From Spirochaetaceae bacterium (GTDB lineage Bacteria; Spirochaetota; Spirochaetia; B11-G9): a DNA stretch of 64,000 bases. The DNA lies in assembly GCA_030638735.1 (NCBI GenBank), contig DAOWEB010000162.1:1416-65415 (forward strand), in the 5' to 3' direction. Below are positions 10,160-45,220 of this stretch, one piece after another. A model generated the notes under the pieces. It did not search any database. It worked only from the letters and a program-made list of their open reading frames with translations, and was not told where the DNA came from. The translations under genes were made by a program, and so were the position numbers. Positions within the stretch are counted from its first letter, which is position 1; every line of letters starts with the position of its first letter.

Positions 10160-10160
10160 T

Positions 10161-13383: not shown

Positions 13384-13395
13384 TAATTAGTAATT

Positions 13396-14115: not shown

Positions 14116-14142
14116 AAATAATATTAATTAAAAATTAATAAA

Positions 14143-14538: not shown

Positions 14539-14545
14539 ATGCTTT

Positions 14546-14836: not shown

Positions 14837-14842
14837 GATATC

Positions 14843-15340: not shown

Positions 15341-15351
15341 AATATAATATC

Positions 15352-16873: not shown

Positions 16874-16879
16874 AATATT

Positions 16880-27260: not shown

Positions 27261-30200
27261 ATGGCCAAGAAGAATAGAACATGGATAAAGTTAGATGGTC
27301 AAACGATCATGCCTCCAACACTAGATGAAAATCTACTTCCTATTGAAGAAACTTTACCTTTAGATGAAGATATTTTAGAGCTTAATACAGGAAGGGGAAA
27401 ACAATCTTATTTTGATATTGATTATTCTAAATCTACTTCAAGAAGACTTGAGGGTACAGGTCAGCCTATTTATGATGAAGAAGGGGTGCTTGCTGCCAAT
27501 CAATCTTTTATTAGTAAAGTAGCGAGTGGTGTTGTTAGTAGAGGTACAAGTATCTTTCCAAAGATAGGACAGAATGTAGCTCATATGGCCGGAGCAATAA
27601 ATTATGGTGTTGATTATATGTTTGAAGCTGCTAAGTTTCTTACAACTGAAGAAGGGACAAAGTTTGAACCAGATGTTGATCCAGCAATGATTTGGGACAA
27701 TCAATTAGCTGAGACATTTAAGATAGTAGATGATAAGTTACTTGAAGAACTACCTGTTTATAAACATCATTATGAAAGATATGGAAGTTTGAAAGATCAA
27801 ATGCGGGGTACTGCTTTTTGGGCAAATGATCTTTTAGATGGTATAGCATTTCTTGGAATGGCGTATGTAACCGGTGCTGGTATTGGTGCTGCATCCAAAG
27901 GAATGTTATTCTCAAAAGCTTTTCTTGCCACAACCAAGGGTAAGCAAGCTGTACAAAGTGTAAAAACTATATCTGCTACAGTATTAAATGCTATGGGTGA
28001 ATCAGGTTTTGAAACAAAAGATTATAATGATTCACAACGAGATTTTATTTCATACAGAGAATATGGAGAAGCGTATAAACAACTTCCGGAAGACTTACAG
28101 AAAGAAATAAAAGAACAGGTTGCTCCGGGTGCCGCCCGTGTATATAGAGGTAATCTTGGTGTTCTTATCCTTCCTAATTATGTTCAAAGTAGATTTATGT
28201 ATGGTTCAGCTGGTCGGGCTGCCAAGGGAGTACGTAATGCAGTACGTAGTGGTAAAATGACAGCTAGTGATATCAAAGTGTGGAAAGAGGGACTTAAAGG
28301 AGGAGGGTTAAGTGCTTTGACTGAAGGACTTTGGGAAGAAGGTATGCAGCATTCTTTACAAACTTATAATGAACGTAAGATATCAAGTAATCAAGATTGG
28401 GGTGATTATATGAATGGCCTTGCTAATCAGTGGGTAGATAATTGGGCTACAACAGAAGGTCAGAAAAGTATGATGCTTGGAGCTCTCATTGGATTAGGTT
28501 TTGGTGGGATAGGTGGAGTAGGACAGGCAATGGCTAAAAAGAAATTTATTTCCGAAGAAGAGAAAATTTGGGATGATCTGACAAAGATATTAGATATTAA
28601 TAACCAATGGTATACAGAACATATATCTGCACCATTTCAAAAACATAAGAATAAAAAGACTGTAAATGGTGAGACTATTGAAATAGAAGGATATTATGAT
28701 GAGAATGGAGAAGTAACAACGGATCCTGAGAAACTTCGTAGGATGTTTCTGTACATGGTGAACAATAAGTTCCTTTATGATGAAGCAATGGCCGCCGCCG
28801 TCAATGGTGATGATATTCACCTGAAGGCTGTTAACAATGATGCACTGGCAAGATTGTATTACAGGTATGCAACATCTCCTGGTATCACTAATCTTGATGA
28901 AGTAGATGAACTGCTTTTAAAACGGGAGTTACAAGTCCCGGTTGAATTACAAGATGAAGGTATAACCCAACAGTTTACCAAAGAGTCTTTAGCTCCTTTT
29001 CGTGAAGCATATGAAGAAGCTGAAACTGCATTGATGGATCTTGATGATTTTACTGAAAACAAAGATGATAGATTCTGGAAGGATGTTGTTCAGAAAACAT
29101 TATTCGGGGAGAAGATGAAAAGGGATTTCCTTAATGATCTGAAATTAGATGAAAATATATCCAAGGAAACCAGTGAGCAAATAGATCGTTTATTAAAAGA
29201 TAGTTCACAAAGAACAAAATTATTATTAAGGAAAGATACCAGGGAGAAATTAAAGAAGGAATATCAAAAAGAAATATCAAGTCAGGAAGAGGCATTACTA
29301 AAGCAAAAGGCTATTTTCAATAAGGAGATTGATACTGAAGAAGAACGTATTCGTGCTCAGTATGAAATTGATGAGTTCTTTGATATCAATGGTAAGTCAA
29401 CACCTTTTTCAACGGAATGGATATATGATTATGATATCACTTATGACAATGCTCTTGGTATGTCCAGACCATTTGGTACGAAATATAATTATTTTAAAGA
29501 GTTAGGTGATCAGTATTCTAAAAAAGCAACTATCAGGGATGAACTTGATAAAACAAAATCAGGACGTGCTTCTATTTCAGTTCCTTTAAAAATGGCAGAG
29601 CAGGCTGGTATAAGTGGTGTGATGTTTTCGGAAGAGGAAGTACTTGAGATGGAAACGGCTGTTGGTGAACGAGATAAAAACTTAAGCAGGGCTGAAAAGA
29701 AAGTTGCAGAAAGAGAGGCTTTTAATGAGTCATATCCTGAAGAAATTACTGAAGCATTTATAAACGAACAGGGCTTTCCGGAAGGAAGACAAATTCCTAA
29801 TCCTGCGATAACACCTGAAATACAGGCTGCTATTGATAGGAATAGTAAATACCTTGATGCATATCAAAAAAGAGTTGCTGATCAAATCTTAGCAAAAGAA
29901 GCTTTAAATGCACTTCGAGAAATGACCAAGGCAAATGATGAGAAGGTTTCCAGAAATAAGATTAAAACACACAGGAGATTCCAGCGTAAATTTGCAGATT
30001 ATCCTGTTAAAAGAGCTATTAATCTGGCAAATACATTTAAGAGTAACAAATCATTTGATGATGCTAATATTGTTGGATCGACTCTTCGTGAATTAAAAAA
30101 CCGTAAGAGGATATATGCAATGCCTGGTCGTAAAATGATGCTTACAACAAATGAATTTAAAGGATATATTGAAAGTGTTAATGATGTTATTACAGAGCTT

Positions 30201-33200
30201 GAGGAGATACGCCCAAAGGTTGAAGAAAATTTTGAAAACAGAAAGACTATTGATCGCCGTAGTATGGTGAATTATTCCCGGGCTTTATTCTCAGCACTTG
30301 GTATTAAGATTGAAGAAGGGATATTTAAGATAATAGATAGTGATATTTATAAGTTAATCTCTGATATTATCGGTGAAGATATATTAACATCTATATTAAA
30401 TGATGCTGCAACTATTAAAAGTGAGGAATATAATTTTACTGGTGATTCAATTTTTGCAGAAAAGATTATAGACCTGGTTAAAAAGAGTGGTAAAAAGAAT
30501 AAGCTCATTGAAAATATAGATGAAAAGCTTAAAATTTTACACGAACAGTTTAATAAGGCTTTTGAGAAATTACCTTCTAATGATCCAAGTGGCGTAAATA
30601 CACAGCTTTCCCTTGCTGGTTATGAACACAATCCATTTAAAGCCATAGATCATATAATTGGTATCTTATTTGATCGTTATAGCACTGAACTGGACGAGGC
30701 GAGTATATTAGATCTCTTTATGCGTAATAAGGATCCTTTGGCTTTATATGAAGCTATTATTAATGGCTCAGATCTTGGTTATAAAAATATAACACCTGAA
30801 GAATTACTGACTATTTTAGAACCACATATTAAAATAACCGGGCTTACCAGAATAAAAGACAGGCTTAAGAGTAAAAAGAATATTGCAGATGTAATTGCTG
30901 TTGAGGCTAGTGTAGCAAAAAGCAAAAAACATGCTCCGAGTAATCAGCAATTGATTGCCCTTCGTGAGGCTGTTTTTCAATTGGAAGAAAGTTTATCTAA
31001 GCGTCATATCAAATATCATGGATGGTATTATATAAAAGGATTGGCCGGTACAGGGAAAACTCAATTAATGGCCCTTTATTTTCCCGAGTTAATAGGTCTG
31101 ACTTATGATAATATAATTGCATTAAGTACACATGAGAATGCATTAAAAGTTTTACAAAGTACTCTTGATGGTGTTAAAAATACAGGACTTGCACAGGATA
31201 TTACTCAAGAGCAATTACAAAATGAAAAAATAGAACTTGTTATAGTTGATGAAGTCTCTAAATTATCTTCTGAAGAACTTGGTCAGTTGGCAGATAAGAT
31301 TACAGAAGCAAATGTCAAAAGACATGAGAATGAATTCAAAGATCTGAAGGTTGTTGTCCTTGGGGATCCGGCACAAGTATTAAATAAAGAATCGGAGAGT
31401 GCTCCTATAAATCGTATAGTTGGTGCTATCCTTAATATCAAAGAACTTTCTCCATTAACAACAGTATTTCGTTCAGGAAACACTGCGATTATCAGGGCTC
31501 AGAATATGTTCATAGACTTCCCTGGTAAGGTTAAGAACTTTATTGGTATGGCTTCTGAGAATATTGGATTACCAGCTATAGGTGTACATGTGTCTAATAG
31601 CGTGGTTGATCTTACAACACAACTAGCTATTCATAAAAAAGTAAATAAAAGATCTCGGGCAGTTGTTGTTGGAAATGAAGAACAGAAGAAACAGTATAAA
31701 CAAAAAGGTGTTGATGTGTTCTTACCACATGAGATTTCAAGTCTTGAGTATGATGAAGTTTATATTGATATTAATCCAAAAGAATATGATAAAGTCAGGA
31801 AATATAACGATGCAATGTATACTTCCATTTCACGGGCTATGGCATATACTTTTATTGTATCATACGAACAAGGGGATAGTTGGGGATATGAGACAGGAAA
31901 GATAGAGCAGGAAGATGTTGATCAAAGAGCAGCTGAGGTTCGTGCTGATTATACTGCCAGGTTAGAATTAGAAGTTAGTGTATTAGGAGATGAACTGAAA
32001 GCTGCAGGGATTAAACAGTCTCAGATATTTAATAATACTCCTGAAGAAGAAGAACAAGTCACTGAGAAACAAACAGATCAGTCAGATAATGATGGTGATC
32101 CGGTAAGTTCAAAGAATGTTGATGATATAGGTGGTAAGTTTGCAGATTCAGAACAGGTTAAAAGTGGACAGGTTCATGAATTGGAGTTTCCTTCATATGA
32201 TCCTATTAAAAATCAGGGTAAATTTGAGGATACAAAACCATTTGTACGTGAAGGATCCAGGGTTAAATACATTCATGTTTTAAATCCGAAGACTAAATTA
32301 CATGAAATACATATTGTAGCACAACATATTAATATTGATGGTACCCCACTTATTGGAGATGTATGGAGCTTGATAGGTGTAATGTCTCAAAATGAATTTG
32401 ATAATACCAAGATTGGAAAGAAGCTACTTCTTAAATCAGCAGAGAAGAAAACTACAGATGGTTATTTATCCAAAGGAAAGTATGGTACCATTAAACCTGC
32501 ATCTACAGGTAATCATGTCTTAGCTGAAGGAGTAATTAAAAAAGCCTCTTCATTATCATACATCTATGGTGATGATATATCTCGTAGTGGAATAGGTTTT
32601 ATAGCCGGGTTAAAGAAAAAAGTCCAAGAGGTTTTTAAGGGAGAGAAATTAACATTTAAAGTTAAAATATATACAACCAGTGATAATCGGCTTACTGCAG
32701 GTATTCCATATCTGGAGATCATACGTGAGCATACCAATCAATTTATACGCTTAACGGGACGCAGAATGCGCCGTGATGATCAGCACATGGTAGCAATTGA
32801 TAAGTTCCGGTCAGTAATGAAGCAGGTTGAAGATGCTGGTATTGGTAAATTAGGAGATCCATATGTTAATGAATTGTTAAAGCGATTCAGAAAAAACTTT
32901 GAGGTACAAAATGAAGAGATTGTAAGAAAAGAAAAAGATGGTTATACCTATGAGGTATATACCAAAGAAGCAAAAGAGAGACAGTTTCCAAAGATAACAG
33001 AAGAACAATTTAATTTACTTAATGAGTTATCAAAGGATTATATTCCTTCATTCTATAAATCAGGAGAGGTTAATAAGAAATTTGATACAGAACAAGAATA
33101 TAAAACGTGGTTAAAATCAGGACCGGAACTAGACAAAGATAATTCTTATGAGTGGGAAGAGAAGACGGGATATATAAAGGGAACCAGTACCCGTAATCCG

Positions 33201-36200
33201 GATCAGACAAAGTATTTGCGTGAGATGGGTCTTAAAGCAGAAGATGGGCCATTACAGATCAGGCTTAATGTAATTGCTAAAACGAATCCTAAATCATCTT
33301 TTGCTATTACCAAACGAATAAGTATCGAGAGAAACGGGAAAATTACAGTTAAGTATATCACTAAAGCTAAGTCTATTTTTAGTGAGAAATCTACCAGTGG
33401 TGTTTATTATCAGCACTTACTCGCTATTTATAAATCCATTAAGGAAGAGGCAACAAAGGAAGGGCTTGAAGATCTTATGCCTGTTAAATTGAGTGATTTT
33501 TTAAAGGACTCAAAGAAATATACCGAAGAAGATAATTTAACATTTCTGGAAGATATCTTATTGCAGTATAAAAATAAAGCAGGTACAACTGTCAAGGGAA
33601 TAAGTGCAACTGAGTTCAGGGAAGAGAGAGAGAAGCATCAGTCGGATCCTATTACCATGGAAACATTGGATGAGATATTATCTTTTGATGAGAATGGTAT
33701 TAACAATAATTTATATTACCCTTTACTATTACCATGGGTTAATAAGTTAGGTGAAGATCTTGGAACAAATGAGGGAGAATTAGAACAGGTATTGGGTTCC
33801 AGGCTCAAGGATATTAACAGGACCAGAATACAGGTAGAACTGGATCCCGGGACTATAGATATTTCTGAAGAGGGTGTACCGGAAAAAGCCCCAGGCAAAA
33901 AAGTAAAAGATAAGGTTGGTGAGGGAGTAAAGAAAATTCGTAGGCGTTGGGATAAACCCGATAAGAAAAGGCTTACACCAAAACGTGCCGGTAATGATCC
34001 CGGGGAAGTAGTTACAATTGAACAGGCTTTAGAGATGGCTCATAGATGGTTGCCTTCATTGAAAGATGATAAAGATTCATTACAGTTTGTAGAAAAAATG
34101 ATTATCGATGCTCTATCTGGAGAAAGTTCATATGGCCTTTATCAAGATCAGGTTGCTTATGTCATGAGTAAGGATGGTAAAACATTTGTTAAGCCTTTAC
34201 GTCATGAGATATTCCATAAGATATTTAATGAATTTCTTACTGGAAAAGAACAGCTAGCATTTGAGAAAGCATTTAAAGAGCAGTTTCCACAGTATAAGAA
34301 CAAGTCTTTGGAAGAGATAGAAGAACTGGCAAATGAGAAATGGCATGATCATACCAGAAAACCAATCAAAGGATTGAATAAAGTCATAATGGATTTCTTT
34401 AACATGCTATCAAAGGTATTTGGTTTTATGAATATGAATGTAAAAAATCTTGATCGCTTGTTCGAAACAATTGAGTCGGGACATTTTGTAAAGTCTAAGA
34501 ATGATGCTACAGGTATTAAAAGAAAAATGCGTGACCTGGTAAAGGATTTTGGAAATGGTACTGATACATTTAAGGGAGCCCTTGAGAACTATAAAAAGTC
34601 TAAGAATATAATCCTTACCGCTGTAAATGAAATACAGAGAGATGGATACCAGTATGAAGAGGATGGAAAATTATATCCTGTATCTATTTCAGAATTAGAT
34701 TTTATTGTAAGACAGGAGCTGGAGAATTTATATAAAGGATTGTTAAGTGATTTAAAAGAATATGATGTCGGTGTTGATATACTAACAAAGGCTGAGTATT
34801 TACGTGGTAATGAAAAGAAAGTTACCTACTCCTTGGCGTTGAAGAACTTTGATTCTCTTTGGAAATCTTTATTTCAGAATTATAAGATTACCACTCCTGT
34901 AGAACTTCGAATTGATGAGTCAATGACTGAAGAGGAGATTATTCAAGAATATAAAGAAGGAGATAATAAAACCAATCTTATTGATCATATAAGAAATTCA
35001 GATGAAGTTAATCAGGAAGATAAAATTAGTTTATTGGTAAAGGATTTCCTTAGTAATATATCTTTGAATGATGAAGCGTACATGAAATGGCGTGAAGCAT
35101 ATATCAGAACCTTACAAGTTTTAGAAGGTGTTCAGTTGAATGAAGATTTTATTATACAGATAGATCAGATGGTTAAAAAGCTTGGTAATAATCCAAGGGT
35201 TAAGATTGTAGCTGATAATCTAAAGGAGATGTATCAGGAGATAGTTCGGCCACCAAAGAATAGTAAAAATGAATCTCTGAGTAACACGGCTAAGTTTGTT
35301 ACTGAAGATATATTTGTTAAAGATGAAGAGTCTGTAAAGGATATTCATGGTAAACATTCTGCTGAGGTTTTAAATATCATACCCATTAACAGGAAGAATA
35401 AGGAAACTACTATAGCGTTTATAGATCGTATCTCTGAGGAAACAGAAATTCCTGTTGATGATGTTATCTCTTATTTTAATCATAATCAGAAACTTCGTAA
35501 GTTCAAGGCAATAAATAATCTTCTTAATAACCAGAATCAAAAAGACTTTTTTGTTGTCGAGAGAAAGAATGAAAGTGGGGGATTGTTTTCTATCAGCTAC
35601 ATACCTGCATCTACATACGGTGTACGTACTACCATTAAATCACAGATAGAAGAAGCTTTAAGAAATAAGATTTCAAATCGTGATGAGCTTGATGAATTTC
35701 TAAATAAATGGCTGGACCGTAATCGTAAGCAGCTGGCCGGGAACAGGTATACATTTGTAAAGAGTTTCCTTAAGCATATTGGCCTTGGCCACCTGGCCCC
35801 TACCTTACCAGATGTTGCATCAGATGAATTATATAATTCTATTATAGGATTCTTTGACCGTGCTAATAAAGAGATGGGTACTATTAAAAAAACTGAAGAA
35901 CATTTATTTGGTGTAGTAATTAAAGAAGAATTTGAGATAGGACTTGATTATCTTATTTCCAAGGATCCTAAGTTTATTAATCTCTTATCTACGATAATTG
36001 GTAGTAGTAGTTCATATATGAGAGCTACAAATATTAAGACTGGTGACGGGAAGAAAAGATACTTATGGTCCACATCATCATTTATGAATACTGTATTCAC
36101 TCACTTAATGAATAACAGTTCTAAGATCTATTCAAAGGTTAAATCTGTATTGCCAAAATATTTGGAAGCTGATTACTTTAAAAAGAATCCTTTTATATCT

Positions 36201-39200
36201 GGACAGTCAAGGATAAGTGCTATTATAAATAATGATGGTATTAAGAAAATATCGGACAGATCTTTTAGTGAATCATTTACTTCTTATAAAAATGAGAATC
36301 GTAAAGATTATATCACCCGTACTTTCATTGCCGGTTTTATGGATAGGATCAGAAGGTCAAAAGATGTTGATGTACGTTATTTCCAATGGTTATATCCCAA
36401 TGAACGTACCCAGGCAGTAGCAGCTGAGGTTGGGGTTAAAACCAAAGATCAAGTTCGTGATTATATAAAAATAGCTATCGAACAAATTAATGAATCTGAA
36501 AAATTTGATTCTATTAAACAAACAGAAAGTAAGAGATTCATAAATATGAGACTTCTTGAAGAGGCTCTTGGTAAGAGAAATATAACAACGAAAAAGCTTT
36601 CTCCAAAAGAGATAGATAAATATACTGATAAAGTAATTGAGTTATTAGCCCGTGAAGCAGATGAATTTGCTCAGTCAGTTATAGATAATAAGGTTCCATT
36701 TGATTCATTAGCTGGTCATATAGGTAATCTGCGTAAATTCCTTAGTAAAGAGGAAGTAAATATGCTTAAGGGTGAAGATGATCTTGTTATTACTACAGCA
36801 AATAAGGAATATAATATTCTAAAAGAGAATATCCTTCCACTAGTTGAGCTTTATGTGATGAATGATTATGTGAATTCATATTTCCTTAATCAACTTATCC
36901 TTGGAGATAACAATCAATTTGAAAATGAAGAGGATGTTATGAGAAGACATTCCCTTGCCACGGCACCGGGATCTATTCCTATTGTAAATGAAACATTTGG
37001 AATAAAGGAAAAAGTAAAGTTTGTTGTATTAGGAAATTCCATTAAGAGTATTGATGATATTAAAAATAGATTACTTCCATTGCTTACCGATGCTGAGAAA
37101 GAAAAACTTCCTGCATTACTTGATAAGTTTACAGATAATTTTGATTCTACAGATGGGCAAGGATTTATGACACCAGAGAGATTTGAAGAATTAGAGAACG
37201 CTGGATTTACAGAAGACTTTGGTATTAATGAGGTTTTAAAACCTGTTGTATATTCAATAAATGACAATGGAGTTGTTACCGGATTGAAATTCTCCTCTAT
37301 TGTACTCACAGACGAGCTTGTTGAGGAGTTCCCATCTCTAGGGGTACTTAGGTATAACTTAAGGAAAAAAAAAGGCGTAGATGAGGCTATATTCGCCTCA
37401 GGAGTGAAATTAGGAATGCCACAGGCTACAGCATCCTATCCTGAAATACTTACCGGTGAATATGAGATAATGGACACTATGACTATTGATGTGTTTAATC
37501 GTGATTACAGATTACAGCTTGATCCTAAATCAAAAATTAAAAGTAGAACAACACAACCCTCACAGCTTATCTATTTAATGAGTGTTCTGGATCAGAATAT
37601 TGATAGAGCAAAGAGAGCATATAATGCATTGGCTAAAATATCAAATCTTGAAGGAGAGACATTTTTGAGTAGATTTAAGAATAAGAAAACATTTAGAGAT
37701 GCCCTTTCAAATTTACTTGAAGGTCGTGGTAATGAGAGAATGTCAGATTTATTTAAGAGTGGTATATCTCATAATTTTCCTAATATCACAGATAAGCTTG
37801 TCATTCAAATGGCTAATCGTTTAAGTGATTCAATTGTTCATATTAAGTTCCCGGGTAATAAACTTGTATTACAATCAGAAACCGGTGTTCGTAAATATGG
37901 TAAATCAATTATTGATGAAGGAGCTCAGAAATTAGCATATAAACTAGATGATCAGGGTAATCTTGTTGCTGAGGTTATACTTCCATCGGGGATATTACCA
38001 AGAGAATATGAAGATAGAATCAAGGCTGCAATAGCACAAGGAAAAGACGCTCATGATTTTTATGATCTTCCTGATTTATTAGGATTCAGGATTCCTTCTT
38101 CAGATATTCATAGTGGAGTGGCCATGAAAGTTGTAGGATTTTATTCTACTCCTGATATTAATGTTGTTATAGCTCCGGATTTACTTGTTGCTTTACATGG
38201 TTCAGACTTTGATGTAGACTCATTATTTTTGATAAACAGATATCATTATCCAAAAGGACATGAAAATCAATATGAACCAATAGGATATTACAAAGGAAAA
38301 AATGGTAGATGGGAATTTAATGAAAAGAAAGAAGAGTTTGATACCAGGGAAGAGGAAATCAAGTATTATAAAAATACTGTTGTTCATGAATTACTTGATC
38401 TTATAAGCAATCCAAAGAATAAAATAGATATGTTATCTCCTATTCCTATGAATCCTATTTATAAGGAAAAAGATAGGGCTGAGGGATTAACTAAAGAACA
38501 AGTAACTTTTGATTTGAGTAATACTAATCATAAGCTTGAAGCTCATGATGTAATCTTTGGTGCTGCAACAGCAACCGGAGTATTTGGTAATGCTGCCAAA
38601 GCATTTGCATATTTACTTAGAACAAATAGCAAGGGTACAATGCCTGAATTAAAAGAAGATGTTTCCGGGATTGTTGTCAATGATCATGAGTTTCGTAAGA
38701 TCCAGTTATATGATGGCATTAAAGAAGATGGTGAAAATCTTTTTACATCAATCGATGGATTTATTAATGCTGCTATTGATAATATCAGGGTACTGGCCCT
38801 TCATTCATTGAATATTACAAGTGAAACTATAGATGCATTTATAACTATGCGTGGTCTTGGAGTACCCCTTGAGACAGTAGATAATATTTTACTTCAACCA
38901 TCTATCAGGGATTATTCTAAAATAGGTTCTTTGGAAAAGGTGCGTGAACATATTATGTATAAACTTGGTAAAACAGATGTAGATACAGATGAGATCGAGT
39001 TAAATGATGATAACCTATCAATTAAAATTAAAAAATATAATAGCATAAGTGATATCCCTGATGGTAATTTAAAAGAATTGACCTTTCAACTCAGAGTAAT
39101 AGAGGAATTTGCAAAAGCAAAAGCTATTGGTGATCAAATAAGCAATATGTCAAAATGGCTTAAGATTGCCAGAACATTACCGGTTACTAAAGTTGAGATC

Positions 39201-42200
39201 GATGATAGTATTGAGTCTGCAATAAAACTCTTTGGTGAAGTAAGTGTTGATGGTAAGATACCTGATCAGATATCATCAGAATTTCCATTTCTAATCCCGG
39301 AATTCTTCGAAAAAAATATGCATATCTTATCATTCTTTAATAAACTCAGAGAGGTTAATGGTTTAATCGAACAAAAATTTCTTAAATATAGTCCAGAATT
39401 TAATAGTCATGTTGAAAAAGCATTGGCATTATTTTCTAAGATTTCTACTATCAGGGAAGACAAAGGGGAGTTTATGAGAAATGAATTGCTGACCTATCTT
39501 ATTGCAAATGAAATTTATTCTGGTGAGTATTCACTCGAGAGAGATGTTGAGTATCAATATAAAATAGGGAATGATATAATTACTATTACCGGTCCAAAGG
39601 CAATAAACCAGATCTTTATTAAGAAAATCTTTGCATTGACGGATTACATGGGTAAGCAAACAGCTAAAACAGGTAAAGAAATAAATAATCAATTCCTGGA
39701 TCATATCAGTCCTGTTTATAATATCATTACAAAAACATATGAGTTGAGATTTGATGGTGGTTCTCACTTAGATACTGATGATCAACTTGATTTTCAATCA
39801 GCATTTTTGGAACTTAATAAATATGAGGTTAATTATAACAAGAAAACTGGAGCATATACTGTGGTTGAAAGAAAAGGAGAGATTGCAGATAATAATTATA
39901 GTAATTTCCAGAAAGAATTTGTCAGTTATGGAGTAATGAATTGGGGATTACAATTCGGATCTTCTAATTACAGTTCTATATTACCAGGGGAGATGTATGC
40001 TGAAGTAGATGGACTATTTAATGAGATACTTGAAAATGCCACAAGTGCTGCATCAGATATATTTTGGGATAATATACAGGATGATTTTGCTATCCAGTTT
40101 GTGATTAATCATGGTAGGAGATTACAGGATCATTTCTTTTTTACCGGTAAGCCAGTTAAACAAGGTGATATGTATATTGGAAATGACAGGATAGATTTTT
40201 ATGGTGGACGTACAGATTCTTTCTTTTATGATAGATCTTATAGCAATCCTGATGGTAAAGTACATGATAAATATATAGTTACCAGATCTTTTAAAGGTGG
40301 ATATCAAGCATTTATAAGAATGAATGGTGAAACAGCCGATACAGTATACTATCAAAGGATAGGAAGAGTTAATCCATTTAAATTCTATAATACTTCAGAT
40401 GAAGTTCTTACCAAGGGATATATAGTGGAAGATCATTTTGGTGGACTTACCTATAATCATACTGTAAACGATCTTAATAGTAAAATGTTTGAGTATCATG
40501 GTTCAGATCTTAAGGTTGGTGATGATATAACATTTACACAACATCATGACGTTACCAGAGTGGATAAAGCTTATAAAAAAATCACAAAAATTGAAGGTAC
40601 GAATGTAACAGTGAAAGACTCTAAAATAACGGAAGTAAAAAAAGCAGATCTTAAGCCTAAGTCCAGTATTATTAATGAGAAACAATCTGTAAATAAAGCA
40701 AGTGCGGAGCTTATTACTGGTGAGAACGGAAAAGTATATCAAATTTTAGATCGTATTATTAATAGTATCCCTTCCGGAATAAGAAAAAAAGCCCTTGAAA
40801 CATTACGTGATGAGATACTTAAAAGAGATATTAAGATAATCAGACAAGATTTAGACGGATCATGGGCCAGGTTCTATCCTGATGGAACTGTGGCTATTGA
40901 TATAAATAAGATAGTTGAAGAAATTAAAGATGATGTTGTCCAGCATACAGATACTGCTTTTACTCATGAACTGTTTCATTCTGTAACTCTTATTAATTAT
41001 TTGACTGATAAAGATTTTAAAGGAAAAATTGATTCTATTATTAAACAACATTTTACAGTAGATAAAAAAGGGGTTCTTCGTTTTAAAAATGAATCTGATT
41101 TTAATGCTGTCAAGGAAGTATATAAAAGACATGGTTTCATTGTTAAAAAGGAAGATGATATTTATGGACTTACTGATATTATTGAATTTATGTCAGAGAT
41201 ATTTAATGATGGTAAGTTCTCGGAAGCCATGGATGCTATTTATGAATCATCGGAGCAGAAAAGTGCCCTAAGAAGAATTATAGATGCTATTTTAGAATTC
41301 TTTGGATGGAAAAATTCAGAAGAATTTAAGATTTCGGATCATCTCCTTGGTCTTGTAAAGGAACAGGTCCAAAGACCTGATCTTATTAGAGTATCTAAGG
41401 ACCTTTATAAAGATGCAGCTGGTAATTATTACAATTTAAAATCTATAAATTATGTAGATATTGAGGTAGAGACTGAACCGGAAGCCAAGGAAGAGGTTAA
41501 GGATAAAACCCGGGAAAAGATTATGAATACCGCTAATAATATCAAGGAACATTCAGAGAAGGTACATGTAGAAAAGCTTGAAAACGGGTTAGAGGGTAAT
41601 AGTTATATAATTAAAGCTACTGCAGATCGTATTCGTAGAATTACTGATCGAAAAGGTGGGATGATATCTTTTTTCTCAAATAAAGTAATAGATCCTCTAG
41701 TATCCTGGGCACAGAATCTTGCGGATATGAAATGGCAAGACACAGAAAAGGAACATAAGTTTCGAACTGATGAAGGTAAGATGGAGGATTATAATGAATT
41801 CAAAACCCGTAAAGAAAGTGAGCTTAAGTTTGGTGAGATAAAAGGTAAGATCGTACACTTGAATTTTGTGAAGGTGGCTAATAAACTATTCAATCTAAGA
41901 TTAAATAATGATGATATCACCAAAGAGATAAATGACCTGGCATCATTATCTGAAAATCAAATATCCCCATCCAATTATGATTGGGTGTTTGATCCTGCTA
42001 CATTACAGAAGATATTTAAAAATGCTGGTATTAATGTATTAATGGAAGATATCCCGGAAACATTAAAAGATATGGCATACCTTCCAGAACAGATAGTATG
42101 GAATGAGAAACTTGGTTTTGGAGGATCAGTTGATGCATTAATTGGACATGCTGATAATACATGGAGTATTATTGATTGGAAAACAGGTAGGAATTTTGGT

Positions 42201-45197
42201 AAGCGAACATCCACTGAACCACTTAAATATGGTCAGCAGGAAGTATTTATTACAGATAATCAAAGGGAACATGCCAAACTACAGGTAATGATGTATGCAG
42301 TAATGCTTAAGCTTAATAATAAAGAAATGAAATTTAGGGACCTGATGGTTATGTGGGTTCCTGATGATTGGATGGCAGAACGTGTGGATAATGAAAGGTT
42401 TGTTGAGGTACGTGCTTATTTACGTATGGTAGAATCATTCTTTAATGATAAGAAAGCCTTGAAAGAGGCGGGTATTGATCCAAATATTAAGGATTATATG
42501 CTTGAAAATAGTCCTGATATTTTTAACCCTACACATTATACTGCTAAATCCAGTGATAGTTTAACCAAGGAACTAATCGATAATGAATTTACTCCTGAAG
42601 AGGCATATCGTAGAAAAGTTCTTGAAATGACTATTATACTAAGTCGCTTTAAAGAACAACGTCAGGTGCGTCATGATGAATTACGTGATGATGAATTGGA
42701 AAGACTAAAGGTATTATATGAAGAGATAGCTATTATGCGTTCTGATCCGGGATTACAGATAGATGTTAGTTCATCCCAGGATATAGGAGTATTTACAGAA
42801 TGGTTTGGGAATTACAATGATATCAGCATGGATGTGTTTCAAACATGGGTAAAAATTAGAAATGAAAACTGGAATAAATATACTCAGCAACATGATAGAG
42901 AGGTTAATAAAATAAATGAGCTTCTAAAGCCTATTTATGCTAGATATATGAAGGGGAAAGTGAAATTTACCAGGGGGGGTATAGATAGACTTGCTCTTGT
43001 GAATTATGCTGAGTTATTTTCATTTGCCTTTAAAGAAGTTGAACTTGATGGATATGCCAGAGAACGTTTATTAACAGATGAAGATGAAGAGTGGAATAAT
43101 TTACGTGATGATGAAAAAGCATTCTTAAATTTTGTAAATAATAAATTTCAACAGTGGTACATTGGAGAAAAAGCTTATCTGAATCAGACAGCTACTGAAA
43201 TGGGTGGGAAGAAATATTCATGGCTTGAACTATATAATATAAATCGTTCTGAGGAAAAGAAGATGAAGTATTATGATGGTTGGTTTCCAAAGATAATGAA
43301 AACCCAGGAAGAAGTTAATTACGAACAAGGGGCCCGGGTACTTGGTCAGCAAATAGGGGCAGGAGATATTACAGGAGCAAATATCATTGGTAAATTCAGC
43401 AGGCAATCTATAAGGGGAAGAATTAAACGAGCTTTAACCTGGTACGAAGAAAATACATTTGAAGGTTTTGATGATCGAAGAATGAGTCTTCCTATTAAAT
43501 TCCAAGACAGTCATTATATTTTAAATAGTAGAGATTATTCCAAGAATGTGCTTTTCATGTTTGATAAATTTAATAAGTCTATGCTTCATAAATCTCATAT
43601 GGATAAGGTTTATGCTACAGGACAAGGTTTAAAAGCATATTTACAATTAAAAAAATATGGTAATGGTCAACCTATGTTTGAAAATACTATTCGATTCTTA
43701 GATAAGAAAATGATATCTGATCTTCAAAATGTTACCATTCCTATTAAATATTCCAGCAAACCAATAACTTTTGGTAAAAAGAATATTTCTCCTGATAAAA
43801 TTATAATGCAGCTTATTAATTGGACCAGTGCTACAATAATGTGGTTAAAACCATTTCAAGGTACAGGTAATGGATTACATGCTAAATTACTTACATATAG
43901 AGAGGGATTAAAAGGTACTATAGCAAGTAAATTCTTAAACATAGAAGGTGATGCTATTGATTTTAGAGTTGAAGATAATGCTTTTGCAGATACACAATAT
44001 TTTGGTGATTTTACAAAAGATGCATTATTTGGAGATCTGAATAAAAATAAGATGTGGTTATTAGCTAGAAAATTGAATTATATACCTGATAATTATGATT
44101 ATGCTACAAATAAAAGATTCTTATTATCTACCAGGAATGTTCTTATTAATAGAAGTAATATGTATATGTTTCATAGTAAGCCAGAGGAATATGTATCATT
44201 GACTACAATGACAGCACAATTAAATTATTTAAAAAATCCAGTTACAGGAAAATCATTATGGGATTCATATCAAGTAGAGAAACAAGAAGATGGTACATAT
44301 GATGTTGTTTGGAAAGGTGGTGTCAGAGGATTTGAACGTGAAGGAAAAGGTATTGCTTCGAGAGATATACCAATTACAGAACTTACATCACATGAAATAA
44401 GTAAACTCAAAAGGGTACATGAGAGAATGCAGGGTGGTTATAGAAAAGAAGAAGCTGCTAATATTGAAGTATATGTGATGGGAAAGGCCTTTATACAATT
44501 CAAAAAATATTTACCAAGACTTATTATAAATGCATTATCAAGTAAAAGAGCTGAGGTTTCATTGGGTACATATAGAGAGCTTAGTGAAAAAAGAATATGG
44601 ACAGATCCAGAAACAGGAGAGAAAACAGAACTTGATGTTTATGAATGGATAAGAAGAACAAATGAAGGTCGTTGGCGTACAACTGTTAATTGGATTCTCG
44701 CTTCTACCAATATGAGTAAGAACCGGGAATATAAATGGTCACAACTTGAATCAGAACAGAAACAGAATGTTGTTGATTTTATGCTTGGAATAAGTATATG
44801 GGGATTATTTAGTGCTTTATATGCAGTGATGTTTGCTGATGATGATGATGATGATACATTTAAGAAATGGTGGAGAAATTATATGATATTAAACTTGAGT
44901 CAACAATATAATCCATATGAATTACTTCATACAGTAGAAACAGCAATGCGTCCTGTATCATTCAGTCGTGCTTTTAAAGCTACAGAAGCTATAAGAAATA
45001 TGATGATTGCTACTGGAAATTTAATGATTGGGAATACAGATAAAGCATTAACTACATCAGGAGAATTACAAGGTTGGAATGAATTTATGAGATCAGTACC
45101 CTATTTGGCATCATGGCATGATTTTGCTAATAAGATGAAACATGGTGATACTACAGAAGAATGGTGGACAAGTACTTGGGATTACAAATGGCGATAA
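27261..45197 (+). CDS. giant multidomain virion protein containing a crAss-type (two-barrel, beta-prime-like) RNA polymerase module
   Basis: A 17,937-nt ORF with no stop codon in an AT-rich genome. It contains RIPSSDIHS...GSDFDVD (comparable to the bacterial beta-prime NRAPTLHRLG...NADFDGD), SF1-helicase motifs, two HExxH motifs, a PD-(D/E)xK motif set, and terminal hydrophobic segments. Confidence 0.8.
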   Translation: MAKKNRTWIKLDGQTIMPPTLDENLLPIEETLPLDEDILELNTGRGKQSYFDIDYSKSTSRRLEGTGQPIYDEEGVLAANQSFISKVASGVVSRGTSIFPKIGQNVAHMAGAINYGVDYMFEAAKFLTTEEGTKFEPDVDPAMIWDNQLAETFKIVDDKLLEELPVYKHHYERYGSLKDQMRGTAFWANDLLDGIAFLGMAYVTGAGIGAASKGMLFSKAFLATTKGKQAVQSVKTISATVLNAMGESGFETKDYNDSQRDFISYREYGEAYKQLPEDLQKEIKEQVAPGAARVYRGNLGVLILPNYVQSRFMYGSAGRAAKGVRNAVRSGKMTASDIKVWKEGLKGGGLSALTEGLWEEGMQHSLQTYNERKISSNQDWGDYMNGLANQWVDNWATTEGQKSMMLGALIGLGFGGIGGVGQAMAKKKFISEEEKIWDDLTKILDINNQWYTEHISAPFQKHKNKKTVNGETIEIEGYYDENGEVTTDPEKLRRMFLYMVNNKFLYDEAMAAAVNGDDIHLKAVNNDALARLYYRYATSPGITNLDEVDELLLKRELQVPVELQDEGITQQFTKESLAPFREAYEEAETALMDLDDFTENKDDRFWKDVVQKTLFGEKMKRDFLNDLKLDENISKETSEQIDRLLKDSSQRTKLLLRKDTREKLKKEYQKEISSQEEALLKQKAIFNKEIDTEEERIRAQYEIDEFFDINGKSTPFSTEWIYDYDITYDNALGMSRPFGTKYNYFKELGDQYSKKATIRDELDKTKSGRASISVPLKMAEQAGISGVMFSEEEVLEMETAVGERDKNLSRAEKKVAEREAFNESYPEEITEAFINEQGFPEGRQIPNPAITPEIQAAIDRNSKYLDAYQKRVADQILAKEALNALREMTKANDEKVSRNKIKTHRRFQRKFADYPVKRAINLANTFKSNKSFDDANIVGSTLRELKNRKRIYAMPGRKMMLTTNEFKGYIESVNDVITELEEIRPKVEENFENRKTIDRRSMVNYSRALFSALGIKIEEGIFKIIDSDIYKLISDIIGEDILTSILNDAATIKSEEYNFTGDSIFAEKIIDLVKKSGKKNKLIENIDEKLKILHEQFNKAFEKLPSNDPSGVNTQLSLAGYEHNPFKAIDHIIGILFDRYSTELDEASILDLFMRNKDPLALYEAIINGSDLGYKNITPEELLTILEPHIKITGLTRIKDRLKSKKNIADVIAVEASVAKSKKHAPSNQQLIALREAVFQLEESLSKRHIKYHGWYYIKGLAGTGKTQLMALYFPELIGLTYDNIIALSTHENALKVLQSTLDGVKNTGLAQDITQEQLQNEKIELVIVDEVSKLSSEELGQLADKITEANVKRHENEFKDLKVVVLGDPAQVLNKESESAPINRIVGAILNIKELSPLTTVFRSGNTAIIRAQNMFIDFPGKVKNFIGMASENIGLPAIGVHVSNSVVDLTTQLAIHKKVNKRSRAVVVGNEEQKKQYKQKGVDVFLPHEISSLEYDEVYIDINPKEYDKVRKYNDAMYTSISRAMAYTFIVSYEQGDSWGYETGKIEQEDVDQRAAEVRADYTARLELEVSVLGDELKAAGIKQSQIFNNTPEEEEQVTEKQTDQSDNDGDPVSSKNVDDIGGKFADSEQVKSGQVHELEFPSYDPIKNQGKFEDTKPFVREGSRVKYIHVLNPKTKLHEIHIVAQHINIDGTPLIGDVWSLIGVMSQNEFDNTKIGKKLLLKSAEKKTTDGYLSKGKYGTIKPASTGNHVLAEGVIKKASSLSYIYGDDISRSGIGFIAGLKKKVQEVFKGEKLTFKVKIYTTSDNRLTAGIPYLEIIREHTNQFIRLTGRRMRRDDQHMVAIDKFRSVMKQVEDAGIGKLGDPYVNELLKRFRKNFEVQNEEIVRKEKDGYTYEVYTKEAKERQFPKITEEQFNLLNELSKDYIPSFYKSGEVNKKFDTEQEYKTWLKSGPELDKDNSYEWEEKTGYIKGTSTRNPDQTKYLREMGLKAEDGPLQIRLNVIAKTNPKSSFAITKRISIERNGKITVKYITKAKSIFSEKSTSGVYYQHLLAIYKSIKEEATKEGLEDLMPVKLSDFLKDSKKYTEEDNLTFLEDILLQYKNKAGTTVKGISATEFREEREKHQSDPITMETLDEILSFDENGINNNLYYPLLLPWVNKLGEDLGTNEGELEQVLGSRLKDINRTRIQVELDPGTIDISEEGVPEKAPGKKVKDKVGEGVKKIRRRWDKPDKKRLTPKRAGNDPGEVVTIEQALEMAHRWLPSLKDDKDSLQFVEKMIIDALSGESSYGLYQDQVAYVMSKDGKTFVKPLRHEIFHKIFNEFLTGKEQLAFEKAFKEQFPQYKNKSLEEIEELANEKWHDHTRKPIKGLNKVIMDFFNMLSKVFGFMNMNVKNLDRLFETIESGHFVKSKNDATGIKRKMRDLVKDFGNGTDTFKGALENYKKSKNIILTAVNEIQRDGYQYEEDGKLYPVSISELDFIVRQELENLYKGLLSDLKEYDVGVDILTKAEYLRGNEKKVTYSLALKNFDSLWKSLFQNYKITTPVELRIDESMTEEEIIQEYKEGDNKTNLIDHIRNSDEVNQEDKISLLVKDFLSNISLNDEAYMKWREAYIRTLQVLEGVQLNEDFIIQIDQMVKKLGNNPRVKIVADNLKEMYQEIVRPPKNSKNESLSNTAKFVTEDIFVKDEESVKDIHGKHSAEVLNIIPINRKNKETTIAFIDRISEETEIPVDDVISYFNHNQKLRKFKAINNLLNNQNQKDFFVVERKNESGGLFSISYIPASTYGVRTTIKSQIEEALRNKISNRDELDEFLNKWLDRNRKQLAGNRYTFVKSFLKHIGLGHLAPTLPDVASDELYNSIIGFFDRANKEMGTIKKTEEHLFGVVIKEEFEIGLDYLISKDPKFINLLSTIIGSSSSYMRATNIKTGDGKKRYLWSTSSFMNTVFTHLMNNSSKIYSKVKSVLPKYLEADYFKKNPFISGQSRISAIINNDGIKKISDRSFSESFTSYKNENRKDYITRTFIAGFMDRIRRSKDVDVRYFQWLYPNERTQAVAAEVGVKTKDQVRDYIKIAIEQINESEKFDSIKQTESKRFINMRLLEEALGKRNITTKKLSPKEIDKYTDKVIELLAREADEFAQSVIDNKVPFDSLAGHIGNLRKFLSKEEVNMLKGEDDLVITTANKEYNILKENILPLVELYVMNDYVNSYFLNQLILGDNNQFENEEDVMRRHSLATAPGSIPIVNETFGIKEKVKFVVLGNSIKSIDDIKNRLLPLLTDAEKEKLPALLDKFTDNFDSTDGQGFMTPERFEELENAGFTEDFGINEVLKPVVYSINDNGVVTGLKFSSIVLTDELVEEFPSLGVLRYNLRKKKGVDEAIFASGVKLGMPQATASYPEILTGEYEIMDTMTIDVFNRDYRLQLDPKSKIKSRTTQPSQLIYLMSVLDQNIDRAKRAYNALAKISNLEGETFLSRFKNKKTFRDALSNLLEGRGNERMSDLFKSGISHNFPNITDKLVIQMANRLSDSIVHIKFPGNKLVLQSETGVRKYGKSIIDEGAQKLAYKLDDQGNLVAEVILPSGILPREYEDRIKAAIAQGKDAHDFYDLPDLLGFRIPSSDIHSGVAMKVVGFYSTPDINVVIAPDLLVALHGSDFDVDSLFLINRYHYPKGHENQYEPIGYYKGKNGRWEFNEKKEEFDTREEEIKYYKNTVVHELLDLISNPKNKIDMLSPIPMNPIYKEKDRAEGLTKEQVTFDLSNTNHKLEAHDVIFGAATATGVFGNAAKAFAYLLRTNSKGTMPELKEDVSGIVVNDHEFRKIQLYDGIKEDGENLFTSIDGFINAAIDNIRVLALHSLNITSETIDAFITMRGLGVPLETVDNILLQPSIRDYSKIGSLEKVREHIMYKLGKTDVDTDEIELNDDNLSIKIKKYNSISDIPDGNLKELTFQLRVIEEFAKAKAIGDQISNMSKWLKIARTLPVTKVEIDDSIESAIKLFGEVSVDGKIPDQISSEFPFLIPEFFEKNMHILSFFNKLREVNGLIEQKFLKYSPEFNSHVEKALALFSKISTIREDKGEFMRNELLTYLIANEIYSGEYSLERDVEYQYKIGNDIITITGPKAINQIFIKKIFALTDYMGKQTAKTGKEINNQFLDHISPVYNIITKTYELRFDGGSHLDTDDQLDFQSAFLELNKYEVNYNKKTGAYTVVERKGEIADNNYSNFQKEFVSYGVMNWGLQFGSSNYSSILPGEMYAEVDGLFNEILENATSAASDIFWDNIQDDFAIQFVINHGRRLQDHFFFTGKPVKQGDMYIGNDRIDFYGGRTDSFFYDRSYSNPDGKVHDKYIVTRSFKGGYQAFIRMNGETADTVYYQRIGRVNPFKFYNTSDEVLTKGYIVEDHFGGLTYNHTVNDLNSKMFEYHGSDLKVGDDITFTQHHDVTRVDKAYKKITKIEGTNVTVKDSKITEVKKADLKPKSSIINEKQSVNKASAELITGENGKVYQILDRIINSIPSGIRKKALETLRDEILKRDIKIIRQDLDGSWARFYPDGTVAIDINKIVEEIKDDVVQHTDTAFTHELFHSVTLINYLTDKDFKGKIDSIIKQHFTVDKKGVLRFKNESDFNAVKEVYKRHGFIVKKEDDIYGLTDIIEFMSEIFNDGKFSEAMDAIYESSEQKSALRRIIDAILEFFGWKNSEEFKISDHLLGLVKEQVQRPDLIRVSKDLYKDAAGNYYNLKSINYVDIEVETEPEAKEEVKDKTREKIMNTANNIKEHSEKVHVEKLENGLEGNSYIIKATADRIRRITDRKGGMISFFSNKVIDPLVSWAQNLADMKWQDTEKEHKFRTDEGKMEDYNEFKTRKESELKFGEIKGKIVHLNFVKVANKLFNLRLNNDDITKEINDLASLSENQISPSNYDWVFDPATLQKIFKNAGINVLMEDIPETLKDMAYLPEQIVWNEKLGFGGSVDALIGHADNTWSIIDWKTGRNFGKRTSTEPLKYGQQEVFITDNQREHAKLQVMMYAVMLKLNNKEMKFRDLMVMWVPDDWMAERVDNERFVEVRAYLRMVESFFNDKKALKEAGIDPNIKDYMLENSPDIFNPTHYTAKSSDSLTKELIDNEFTPEEAYRRKVLEMTIILSRFKEQRQVRHDELRDDELERLKVLYEEIAIMRSDPGLQIDVSSSQDIGVFTEWFGNYNDISMDVFQTWVKIRNENWNKYTQQHDREVNKINELLKPIYARYMKGKVKFTRGGIDRLALVNYAELFSFAFKEVELDGYARERLLTDEDEEWNNLRDDEKAFLNFVNNKFQQWYIGEKAYLNQTATEMGGKKYSWLELYNINRSEEKKMKYYDGWFPKIMKTQEEVNYEQGARVLGQQIGAGDITGANIIGKFSRQSIRGRIKRALTWYEENTFEGFDDRRMSLPIKFQDSHYILNSRDYSKNVLFMFDKFNKSMLHKSHMDKVYATGQGLKAYLQLKKYGNGQPMFENTIRFLDKKMISDLQNVTIPIKYSSKPITFGKKNISPDKIIMQLINWTSATIMWLKPFQGTGNGLHAKLLTYREGLKGTIASKFLNIEGDAIDFRVEDNAFADTQYFGDFTKDALFGDLNKNKMWLLARKLNYIPDNYDYATNKRFLLSTRNVLINRSNMYMFHSKPEEYVSLTTMTAQLNYLKNPVTGKSLWDSYQVEKQEDGTYDVVWKGGVRGFEREGKGIASRDIPITELTSHEISKLKRVHERMQGGYRKEEAANIEVYVMGKAFIQFKKYLPRLIINALSSKRAEVSLGTYRELSEKRIWTDPETGEKTELDVYEWIRRTNEGRWRTTVNWILASTNMSKNREYKWSQLESEQKQNVVDFMLGISIWGLFSALYAVMFADDDDDDTFKKWWRNYMILNLSQQYNPYELLHTVETAMRPVSFSRAFKATEAIRNMMIATGNLMIGNTDKALTTSGELQGWNEFMRSVPYLASWHDFANKMKHGDTTEEWWTSTWDYKWR
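30980..31870 (+). other. SF1 (RecD/Dda/UvrD_C_2-like) helicase-type P-loop domain inside the giant ORF
   Basis: Walker A GLAGTGKT (31038-31061), Walker B LVIVDEVS (DE at 31248-31253), motif III VLGDPAQ (about 31363-31377), and the C-terminal MYTSISRAMAYTFIV motif (about 31813-31860). Confidence 0.7.
34203..34217 (+). other. HExxH motif 1 (HEIFH, aa 2315-2319 of the giant ORF)
   Basis: Context is KPLRHEIFHKIFNEF, so the zincin-like motif sits in a predicted helix. Confidence 0.45.
38088..38219 (+). other. beta-prime-type DPBB catalytic segment (R3610...D3649-F-D-V-D3653)
   Basis: FRIPSSDIHSGVAMKVVGFY...VVIAPDLLVALHGSDFDVD parallels E. coli beta-prime NRAPTLHRLGIQAF...AIQLHPLVCAAYNADFDGD in both order and spacing. 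Confidence 0.75.
40965..40979 (+). other. HExxH motif 2 (HELFH, aa 4569-4573 of the giant ORF)
   Basis: Context is DTAFTHELFHSVTLINYL. Confidence 0.45.
41830..42300 (+). other. RecB/Cas4-like PD-(D/E)xK nuclease motif set inside the giant ORF
   Basis: GEIKGKIVHLNF (G..vH), GGSVDALIGH (D4958), WSIIDWKTG (D4972-x-K4974) and LQVMMYAVM (QxxxY), in canonical order and spacing. Confidence 0.65.
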
Positions 45198-45220
45198 AAA
45201 AAGGCCCGTAGGCCCTTCTA
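45198..45220. terminator. GC hairpin at the convergent junction, best suited as terminator of the - strand block
   Basis: ggcc-cgta-ggcc stem-loop (45203-45214). On the - strand the stem extends to 7 bp (aagggcc/ggccttt with one G.U) and runs into a T7 tract. The hairpin fills the whole 23-nt gap between the two stop codons. Confidence 0.55.

Follow-up and report, generated by a model that had tools for sequence, protein, structure and literature searches.

The 64,000-nucleotide stretch of DNA analysed here (hereafter the window; contig DAOWEB010000162.1 of assembly GCA_030638735.1, filed under Spirochaetaceae bacterium) carries on its + strand, between positions 27261 and 45197, a giant open reading frame (ORF) of 5,978 codons which is best explained, with a probability of roughly 0.9, as the fused transcription and cargo block of a phage of the Crassvirales, whose product would work through the steps proposed below. 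Profile comparisons and gene order demonstrate, at the level of sequence, the identity of this block and its synteny with the virion-packaged, ejected RNA polymerase (RNAP) and cargo proteins of the two characterised crassviruses, phi14:2 and PhiCrAss001, the only phages for which presence in the virion, ejection and rifampicin-resistant early transcription are known.

The central part of the giant protein (aa 2583–4446, nt 35007–40598, + strand) is occupied by a two-barrel virion RNAP, i.e., an enzyme with two double-psi β-barrels (DPBBs). A profile (A1) made of 13 sequences, namely aa 3001–4446 of the giant ORF and 12 database homologs, yields a single match in the PDB, 6VR4, the DNA-dependent RNA polymerase gp66 of phi14:2 (E = 7e-35, chain residues 770–1805), and the matched span takes in both DPBBs, the connector (1095–1238), the bridge helix and the trigger loop, as these domains are delimited in the published gp66 paper. 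In the alignment, GFRIPS..HS...HGSDFDVDSLF of the giant ORF faces GYRIPN..SS...TGSDFDIDKMY of 6VR4. The catalytic residues D3649-F-D3651-V-D3653 (nt 38205–38219) belong to a RIPSSDIHS...DFDVD segment spanning aa 3610–3653; the three aspartates are invariant in the 13 sequences, as are the flanking R3610, P3612, S3618 and G3647 and, elsewhere in the block, K3534, N3836 and D3840. The fourth position of the DFDxD motif is Val, and Ile or Val is typical of crAss-like RNAPs at this position (gp66 paper). The clade RNAP profile detects phi14:2 gp66 at 4e-35 and PhiCrAss001 gp50 at 3e-35, while Pfam and PHROGs give no match in the DFDVD region. Judged from these alignments, the giant ORF carries a gp66-type two-barrel virion RNAP. 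The closest database homolog of this part (P0001 in our numbering; NCBI, 44% identity, E = 8e-227) is a hypothetical protein from a 4.5-kb contig of an “Anaerolineales bacterium” metagenome-assembled genome, in all likelihood a piece of a crAss-like phage that ended up in a bacterial bin.

Homology with the cargo proteins extends to both ends of the chain. The profile (A6) of the N-terminal module (aa 60–600, nt 27438–29060, + strand) matches aa 55–535 of phi14:2 gp67 at 3e-59 and aa 71–659 of PhiCrAss001 gp47 at 2e-19, the module containing two Gly/Ala-rich hydrophobic segments at aa 191–212 (nt 27831–27896) and aa 403–421 (nt 28467–28523). The profile (A7) of the C-terminal module (aa 5100–5978, nt 42558–45194, + strand) matches aa 979–1404 of phi14:2 gp65 at 7e-15 and PhiCrAss001 gp49 at 1e-14; here a conserved transmembrane (TM) helix (aa 5840–5858, nt 44778–44834) is followed by an acidic run of six aspartates (D6, aa 5860–5865, nt 44838–44855), the clade consensus at this run being MFxDDDDxD. 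Searches of the PDB with the profiles of these two modules found no match. When the second HExxH domain, which is related to another part of gp65 (4e-19, see below), is included, homologs of gp67, gp66 and gp65 are collinear in one reading frame. Pairwise searches fail at this degree of divergence: with either half of the ORF as query, tblastn against 50,697 GenBank phage records yielded no match at 1e-5, and phmmer with phi14:2 gp65, gp66 and gp67 as queries found none in the giant ORF, so that profiles alone connect the latter to phi14:2.

The genomic context agrees with these assignments. In phi14:2 the genes g072, g071, g070, g069, g068, g067 (1,797 aa), g066 (2,180 aa, the virion RNAP) and g065 (1,421 aa) follow one another, after which the coding strand switches; the same order is found in the window, the giant ORF replacing g067-g066-g065. 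The + strand block that precedes it is a crassvirus tail module comprising a ring protein (CrAss_Ring_2, ORF 16880–17596), a homolog of g072 (4e-18; CrAss_Ring_1, ORF 18441–19187) and a 1,277-aa homolog of g071 (7e-90; ORF 19187–23020) that corresponds to the crassvirus muzzle protein (crAss_MUZ), the three family names being precomputed Pfam matches on an identical public contig. When the muzzle ORF was compared by tblastn with GenBank phages, all 84 of the 84 matches were Crassvirales, with an identity not exceeding 27–28%; in older records its phi14:2 homolog, g071, goes by the name of “tail stabilization protein”. Directly after the giant ORF the coding strand switches to a replication block with DnaB, Dam, RusA and HNH.

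The correspondence with the two characterised phages can be drawn module by module. In phi14:2 the N-terminal module is the N-terminus of gp67, the polymerase is gp66 (DFDxD with a hydrophobic fourth residue) and the second HExxH domain and the C-terminus are gp65; this block occupies the same genomic position and has the same order, but consists of three genes totalling 5,398 aa, as opposed to one ORF of 5,978 aa, and by the clade profiles it has no helicase, PD-(D/E)xK nuclease or first HExxH domain, gp67 being without a Walker A motif. In PhiCrAss001 gp47 combines the N-terminal module with the first HExxH domain, gp50 is the RNAP (DFDVD) and gp49 the C-terminal module, in the same order; the three proteins add up to ~694 kDa, close to the 686.5 kDa of the giant ORF product, but they are encoded by three genes on two strands and neither a helicase nor a nuclease nor the second HExxH domain is detected in them.

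Helicase, nuclease and HExxH domains

Upstream of the polymerase lies a helicase module (aa 1200–1560, nt 30858–31940, + strand), which Pfam recognises as AAA_30/Viral_helicase1 at aa ~1255–1527 (E = 5e-10) and which has its Walker A sequence, GTGKT, at aa 1263–1267. Thirty-one helicase sequences of the clade, sharing only 21–46% identity, have in common Q1230 (Q motif), G1263, G1265 and K1266 (Walker A), D1330-E1331 (Walker B), D1369 and Q1372 (motif III) and the arginine fingers R1404 and R1525, all invariant. The best PDB matches of the helicase profile are Pif1, RecD and Dda, and it is from these best-scoring helicases that the module is assigned, provisionally, to class SF1B (Pif1/RecD/Dda-like). 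An exhaustive HMMER search with aa 1041–2240 against 1.84 billion representatives returned 61 proteins only, nearly all of them giant and with the match at the same relative position, and no ordinary cellular helicase; eight of the 61 are cluster representatives of 6,009–6,302 aa.

The nuclease module (aa 4780–5100, nt 41598–42560, + strand) is found on the opposite side of the RNAP, ~3,300 residues away from the helicase. Its core consists of D4958 and D4972-W-K4974, invariant or nearly so in 21 sequences, together with a QxxxY-like motif, KLQVMMY. Pfam PDDEXK_1 matches the giant ORF at aa 4943–5036 (5.5e-5, improving to 9e-6 once the segment is trimmed) as well as 16 of the 21 clade members (best value 1.5e-12), and the exonuclease family phrog_298 matches the module at 6e-11. 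The enzyme had originally been described as RecB/Cas4-like: a PD-(D/E)xK nuclease of the RecB family it is, but the likeness to Cas4 has to be dropped because there is no Cys for an Fe–S cluster. A nuclease of the Cas4 or AddB type, in the Fe–S sense, is ruled out since four Cys are required, whereas the giant ORF has none and its relatives have 0–1.

The alignments demonstrate that every catalytic motif is under purifying selection across the clade. Neither the helicase nor the nuclease profile finds a match in gp65–gp72 of phi14:2 or in gp45–gp50 of PhiCrAss001. A likeness to RecBCD and AddAB can be seen in that the helicase module matches RecD, besides Pif1 and Dda, and the nuclease is of the RecB family; the difference is that here the two are in cis with a polymerase, ~3,300 residues apart and without an Fe–S cluster.

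The two HExxH domains flank the polymerase. In the first (Zn1; aa 2240–2480, nt 33978–34700, + strand), H2315, E2316 and H2319 of the HEIFH motif are invariant in 28 sequences and E2354/E2355, 35 residues downstream, are nearly so; the Zn1 profile matches the C-terminal end of PhiCrAss001 gp47 (HEAFH at 2157) at 2e-10. The profile search of the PDB with Zn1 gave no match, and the alignment used as a homology-search query gave one match only. In the second (Zn2; aa 4470–4780, nt 40668–41600, + strand), the key residues are H4569, H4573, T4576 and E4642 (HELFH at 4569), both His of the HExxH motif being invariant and its Glu being present in 6 of 7 sequences. Its profile matches aa 172–375 of phi14:2 gp65 at 4e-19, a region around HEIMH described in the literature as zincin-like, as well as two solved podophage ejection proteins, PDB 23sg, “gp10” (4e-11), and PDB 8VB2, the tetrameric gp48 of PhiM1, an analogue of T7 gp16 (4.5e-5), the latter match being confined to profile positions 97–232 and chain residues ~375–515. 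The last two proteins, which are stored in the capsid and, once ejected, bridge the envelope, share with Zn2 a HExxH..T ... EFISE..N.EF..AL domain of only ~140 residues; the rest of their ~1,250 aa is unmatched and they contain no polymerase. The relationship of Zn2 to T7 gp16-class ejection proteins is that of a shared domain and not of membership in one family. Aligned with each other by hhalign, Zn1 and Zn2 score 92.6% (E = 4e-7), Zn1 being a distant paralog of Zn2.

As to the two zincin motifs of the original prediction, the HExxH motifs prove to be conserved and Zn2 to be related to the gp65 domain, but the zincin fold is not verified: neither domain has a significant peptidase match in Pfam or the PDB, and the AlphaFold2 (AF2) models, made from 2-row alignments, have a pLDDT below 50 (49.9 for Zn1 and 43.6 for Zn2), too low for fold comparison. 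Conserved Glu residues downstream of the motifs (E2354/E2355 and E4642) may provide a third metal ligand.

By tblastn Zn2 is found in the closer relatives only (L006–L009, L012, L013, L017, L024, L026, L032, L045 and L046) and goes undetected in L020, L027, L022 and L040, which are fully fused but less closely related. Two further relatives, L001 and L003, have a single HExxH domain, placed upstream of the RNAP and bearing the gp65/Zn2-type signature HELIHxxT.

The giant ORF and its relatives

The giant ORF starts with ATG, ends with TAA and runs through its 5,978 codons without interruption, encoding an acidic protein. At the local base composition a codon has a 0.085 chance of being a stop and the probability of such a stop-free run is ~1e-231, whereas the off-frames of the same DNA contain 408 and 941 stops. 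A 48-kb contig of the Logan assembly SRR13892605 is 100% identical over window positions 14906–37251 and there too a gene of 5,978 residues is called; the proteins flanking the giant ORF are present on three public contigs. An exact 40-mer from the ORF has no occurrence in the IMG/VR or JGI metagenome contigs. The giant ORF is confirmed as a genuine gene.

On these points the original prediction has proved sound. It had held that an uninterrupted 17.9-kb frame could not be due to chance, and in the separate Logan assembly the gene is called at the same length. All the motifs that it listed (the SF1 set with GTGKT, HEIFH, RIPSSDIHS...DFDVD, HELFH and D6) lie at the residues given for them, and hydropathy places hydrophobic stretches at aa 191–212, 403–421 and 5840–5858, as announced. 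The helicase recognised as SF1 is supported by AAA_30 (5e-10) and by the motif set invariant in 31 sequences, and what had been taken for a β′-type DPBB segment turns out to be part of a two-barrel, gp66-type RNAP matching 6VR4 at 7e-35. The description of the window as crAss-like, with the giant ORF as last gene of the virion block, fits the ring and muzzle homologs upstream and the strand switch directly downstream.

How common such an ORF is was assessed by scanning IMG/VR with the RNAP profile, which identified 63 loci on contigs of 17–113 kb. More than 12 of these contigs contain complete ORFs of 5,575–6,681 aa that run through the catalytic site, many of them in the standard code and with all modules in the same order, and at least 15 relatives have versions of 5,500–6,700 aa, among the long ones being L006 (6,393 aa), L012 (6,558 aa), L027 (6,496 aa) and L030 (6,681 aa). 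The comparison of gene boundaries with other crassviruses, which had been called for at the outset, was carried out by mapping stops across the clade and revealed a recurrent boundary directly after the RNAP, in a region that corresponds to window aa ~4250–4510 | 4560–4950; ~30 loci are split at this boundary and ~15–19 are fully fused, and a second, rare boundary lies between helicase and Zn1. Zn2 sits on the junction that constitutes the gene boundary in the ~30 split relatives.

Part of the apparent splitting has a different origin. L001 (nt 1–17726) and L003 (nt 1–17634), the first relatives to be found, are annotated as 4–10 genes, but the pieces are all in the same frame and are separated by TGA only. 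Ten of the TGA codons align to a residue of the giant protein, five of them facing Trp and four facing Phe, and code-4 BLAST alignments run through them; read in code 4, the two loci contain an ORF of at least 4,550 aa and one of ~1,320 aa. Read-through of TGA is needed in 7 of the 65 relatives examined (L001, L003, L010, L016, L042, L050 and L058), while the genome of the window uses the standard code. No tRNA, and hence no suppressor tRNA, was found by a search of the window and of the parts of L001 and L003 that were fetched. Reassignment of TGA to Trp in some crAss-like lineages is known from Yutin et al. 2021, and the aligned codons show that relatives of the L001/L003 type do reassign TGA to Trp. 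Because their stops are TGA only and in one frame, the split appearance that these two loci had at first is an artefact, and the notion that the relatives keep the modules as separate genes, the fusion of the window being exceptional, is ruled out on the same grounds.

It could be argued, conversely, that the giant ORF itself is an artefact of assembly or sequencing which joins neighbouring genes, as the annotation of L001 and L003 as 4–10 separate genes might have suggested. The TGA-separated pieces in one frame, with TGA aligned to Trp or Phe, deprive this argument of its basis; moreover, the identical 5,978-aa gene occurs in the Logan assembly, the neighbours are found on three contigs, many relatives have equally long standard-code ORFs and sequencing errors break ORFs rather than create them. 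The explanation, scarcely credible in view of all this, is rejected on the strength of the Logan copy, the long relatives and the TGA-only stops.

A more serious objection is that the ORF, albeit real, might not be made as one protein, internal starts or programmed events yielding separate products resembling gp67, gp66 and gp65; the fusion would then amount to no more than lost stop codons. That the units can work apart is indicated by the real boundary that ~30 relatives have after the RNAP and that a few have before Zn1. We nonetheless consider this unlikely, since 5,978 codons follow one another without a stop, the junction at aa 4450–4780 is no spacer but encodes the conserved Zn2, homologous to gp65, and at least 15 independent contigs show the full fusion; no internal start signal, for which there was no dedicated test, was seen.

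The fusion is of a known kind and is not rare within its own clade. Drobysheva et al., citing Yutin et al. 2018, state that gp65, gp66 and gp67 form a single huge polyprotein in some phages, which is probably cleaved, gp65 carrying a zincin-like protease domain, and a review (PMC10136315) speaks of a crAss-like RNA polymerase gene of “up to ~6000 aa”. In these uncultured crAss-like phages, too, a single huge ORF joins the three proteins. The combination of activities in a single polypeptide had been regarded as the most unusual thing in the window; fusion as such is not new, as these published cases and the at least 15 IMG/VR relatives with 5,500–6,700-aa versions show; the related idea that the whole ejectosome is contained in one polypeptide holds for polymerase, helicase, nuclease and HExxH domains, all of which are fused, but not for two Cys-free ORFs (624 and 781 aa), which stay separate. 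What goes beyond the two characterised phages is that a conserved SF1B helicase and a conserved PD-(D/E)xK nuclease are present in cis and that the HExxH domain is duplicated; no passage describing an SF1 helicase inside this block was found in the literature text (not including figures and Yutin et al. 2018). A practical lesson can also be drawn: as public gene calls chop TGA-recoded ORFs into 4–10 pseudo-genes, calls that ignore recoding hide giant ORFs and domain surveys based on them misjudge how common the fusion is.

Cysteine depletion and the possible working of the fused protein

Not a single Cys is present among the 5,978 residues of the giant protein, compared with the ~43 that the remaining ORFs in the window would lead one to expect (P ~3e-19), and Cys codons are not lacking in the off-frames of the same DNA (76 and 287). 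The depletion begins upstream: between positions 23020 and 45197 three consecutive ORFs (624 aa, 781 aa and the giant one) comprise 7,383 codons without Cys, as opposed to 0.71% Cys in the rest of the window. No TM helix was found in the two shorter ORFs, which were examined as C1-like cargo. The relatives contain 1 Cys per ~4,500 aa, with 0–1 in the corresponding ORF, and the cargo proteins of the characterised phages are similarly poor in this residue (4 Cys in the 5,398 aa of phi14:2 gp65–67 and 7 in the 7,478 aa of PhiCrAss001 gp45–50), the depletion being seen also in phi14:2 gp68 and gp70.

The PhiCrAss001 cargo proteins are contained in the capsid and have to be ejected partly unfolded through constrictions narrower than 50 Å (PMC10172136). 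Because the orthologs must pass such constrictions, the near-total absence of Cys fits a partly unfolded ejection, and it looks like a signature of proteins ejected unfolded through tail and periplasm; near-absence of Cys across crassvirus cargo proteins could help to recognise ejected proteins.

By analogy with these systems, the giant protein would be made late, packed in the capsid and threaded partly unfolded through the tail, ahead of the DNA or together with it. The hydrophobic segments of the N-terminal module and the C-terminal TM helix with its acidic run may serve membrane insertion and envelope penetration, and the HExxH domains, including the one resembling gp65 and T7 gp16, may take part in envelope penetration and/or self-processing. 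If the chain is cleaved, the candidate sites are the conserved junction after the RNAP and the gap between helicase and Zn1, because it is there that natural gene boundaries lie in the relatives. The two-barrel RNAP, for which homology to gp66 has been established, would transcribe the early genes, whereas the helicase, placed upstream of it, and the nuclease, placed downstream, might unwind or resect the entering DNA end so as to provide the RNAP with a single-stranded template.

In vitro, gp66 makes efficient use of single-stranded or denatured templates but does not transcribe double-stranded DNA, its closest structural relative, QDE-1, needs a helicase (QDE-3) and RPA to obtain a single-stranded DNA template, and the early transcripts have no common promoter motif (bioRxiv 10.1101/2020.03.07.982082). 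Because gp66 needs single-stranded or denatured DNA and QDE-1 needs a helicase and RPA, our best guess is that helicase and nuclease supply a single-stranded template to the polymerase. In its full form, the proposal would be that of an injected machine that unwinds, resects and transcribes, the single-stranded template made in this way accounting for a start without recognisable promoters and the lack of Cys representing an adaptation to the threading of a 686.5-kDa chain through the tail and an oxidising periplasm; we advance it tentatively, as a scheme whose chances of being correct in all its parts are rather modest.

The same identity of the block is compatible with a different employment of helicase and nuclease, namely as injected weapons that degrade or unwind host DNA, plasmids or defence nucleic acids as soon as they enter, or as protectors of the genome ends against host exonucleases. 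Both modules would then be accessory, as their absence from phi14:2 and PhiCrAss001 suggests, and the confinement of the helicase family to giant phage proteins is what would be expected of a fast-evolving conflict module; furthermore, according to Yutin et al. 2021, up to three PDDEXK nucleases, evidently differing in their roles, are present in crAss-like phages. Position and catalytic residues are, however, conserved across a deep clade (21–50% identity), which fits a core role equally well, and no similarity to known anti-defence proteins is seen, so that this employment, too, is conceivable but doubtful.

Several considerations weigh against the fused, ejected transcription and cargo block with the working outlined above. 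Packaging, ejection, cleavage and enzymatic activities of the giant protein are all attributed to it by homology; phi14:2 and PhiCrAss001 do without a fused helicase and nuclease, so that the general mechanism does not depend on these modules and their function may lie elsewhere; a separation of ~3,300 residues across the RNAP is unlike what is found in known helicase–nuclease machines; and the zincin fold finds no backing in a Pfam or PDB peptidase match or in AF2 models with a pLDDT of 44–50.

Giant polymerases that are packaged in the virion, injected and responsible for early transcription occur in other phages as well, namely the vRNAP of N4 (~3,500 aa) and the RNAP of the Thermus phage P23-45, fused to the tape measure protein (5,002 aa). 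Like the polymerase of the giant ORF, that of P23-45 has two barrels and is joined to a protein with a structural or ejection function, while the vRNAP of coliphage N4 is a T7-like single-subunit enzyme and not a two-barrel one. For neither have helicase or nuclease modules been reported, and no sequence match between them and the giant ORF was seen.

The fused modules bear on the way in which the virion polymerases of crAss-like phages locate and open their template in the cell. A sizeable environmental clade in which helicase and nuclease, with all catalytic residues conserved, reside in the same injected polypeptide would point to a concrete answer that can be tested and would provide biochemists with natural fusion constructs.

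Neighbouring features of the window

Just past the TAA of the giant ORF, at positions 45195–45225, the sequence A7-GGCC-CGTA-GGCC-CTTCT forms a G+C hairpin of 4 bp, flanked by a run of A and a T-rich stretch and located within the 24-nt gap ahead of a small convergent ORF (45221–45403, − strand); a terminator scan downstream of the giant ORF found nothing, the GGCC hairpin being too short for the scan. At ~45–46 kb the GC skew changes from +0.15..0.29 to −0.11..−0.20, exactly at the switch from virion (+) to replication (−) coding. The first sizeable gene of the − strand replication block encodes the HNH endonuclease (45929–46462), with 6.2% Cys. A second very large virion gene, with a single Cys in 2,072 aa, lies at positions 3941–10159; only its last ~100 residues match PHROGs (tail-fibre/virion structural), and its product is probably a tail fibre or spike whose C-terminal domain is conserved.

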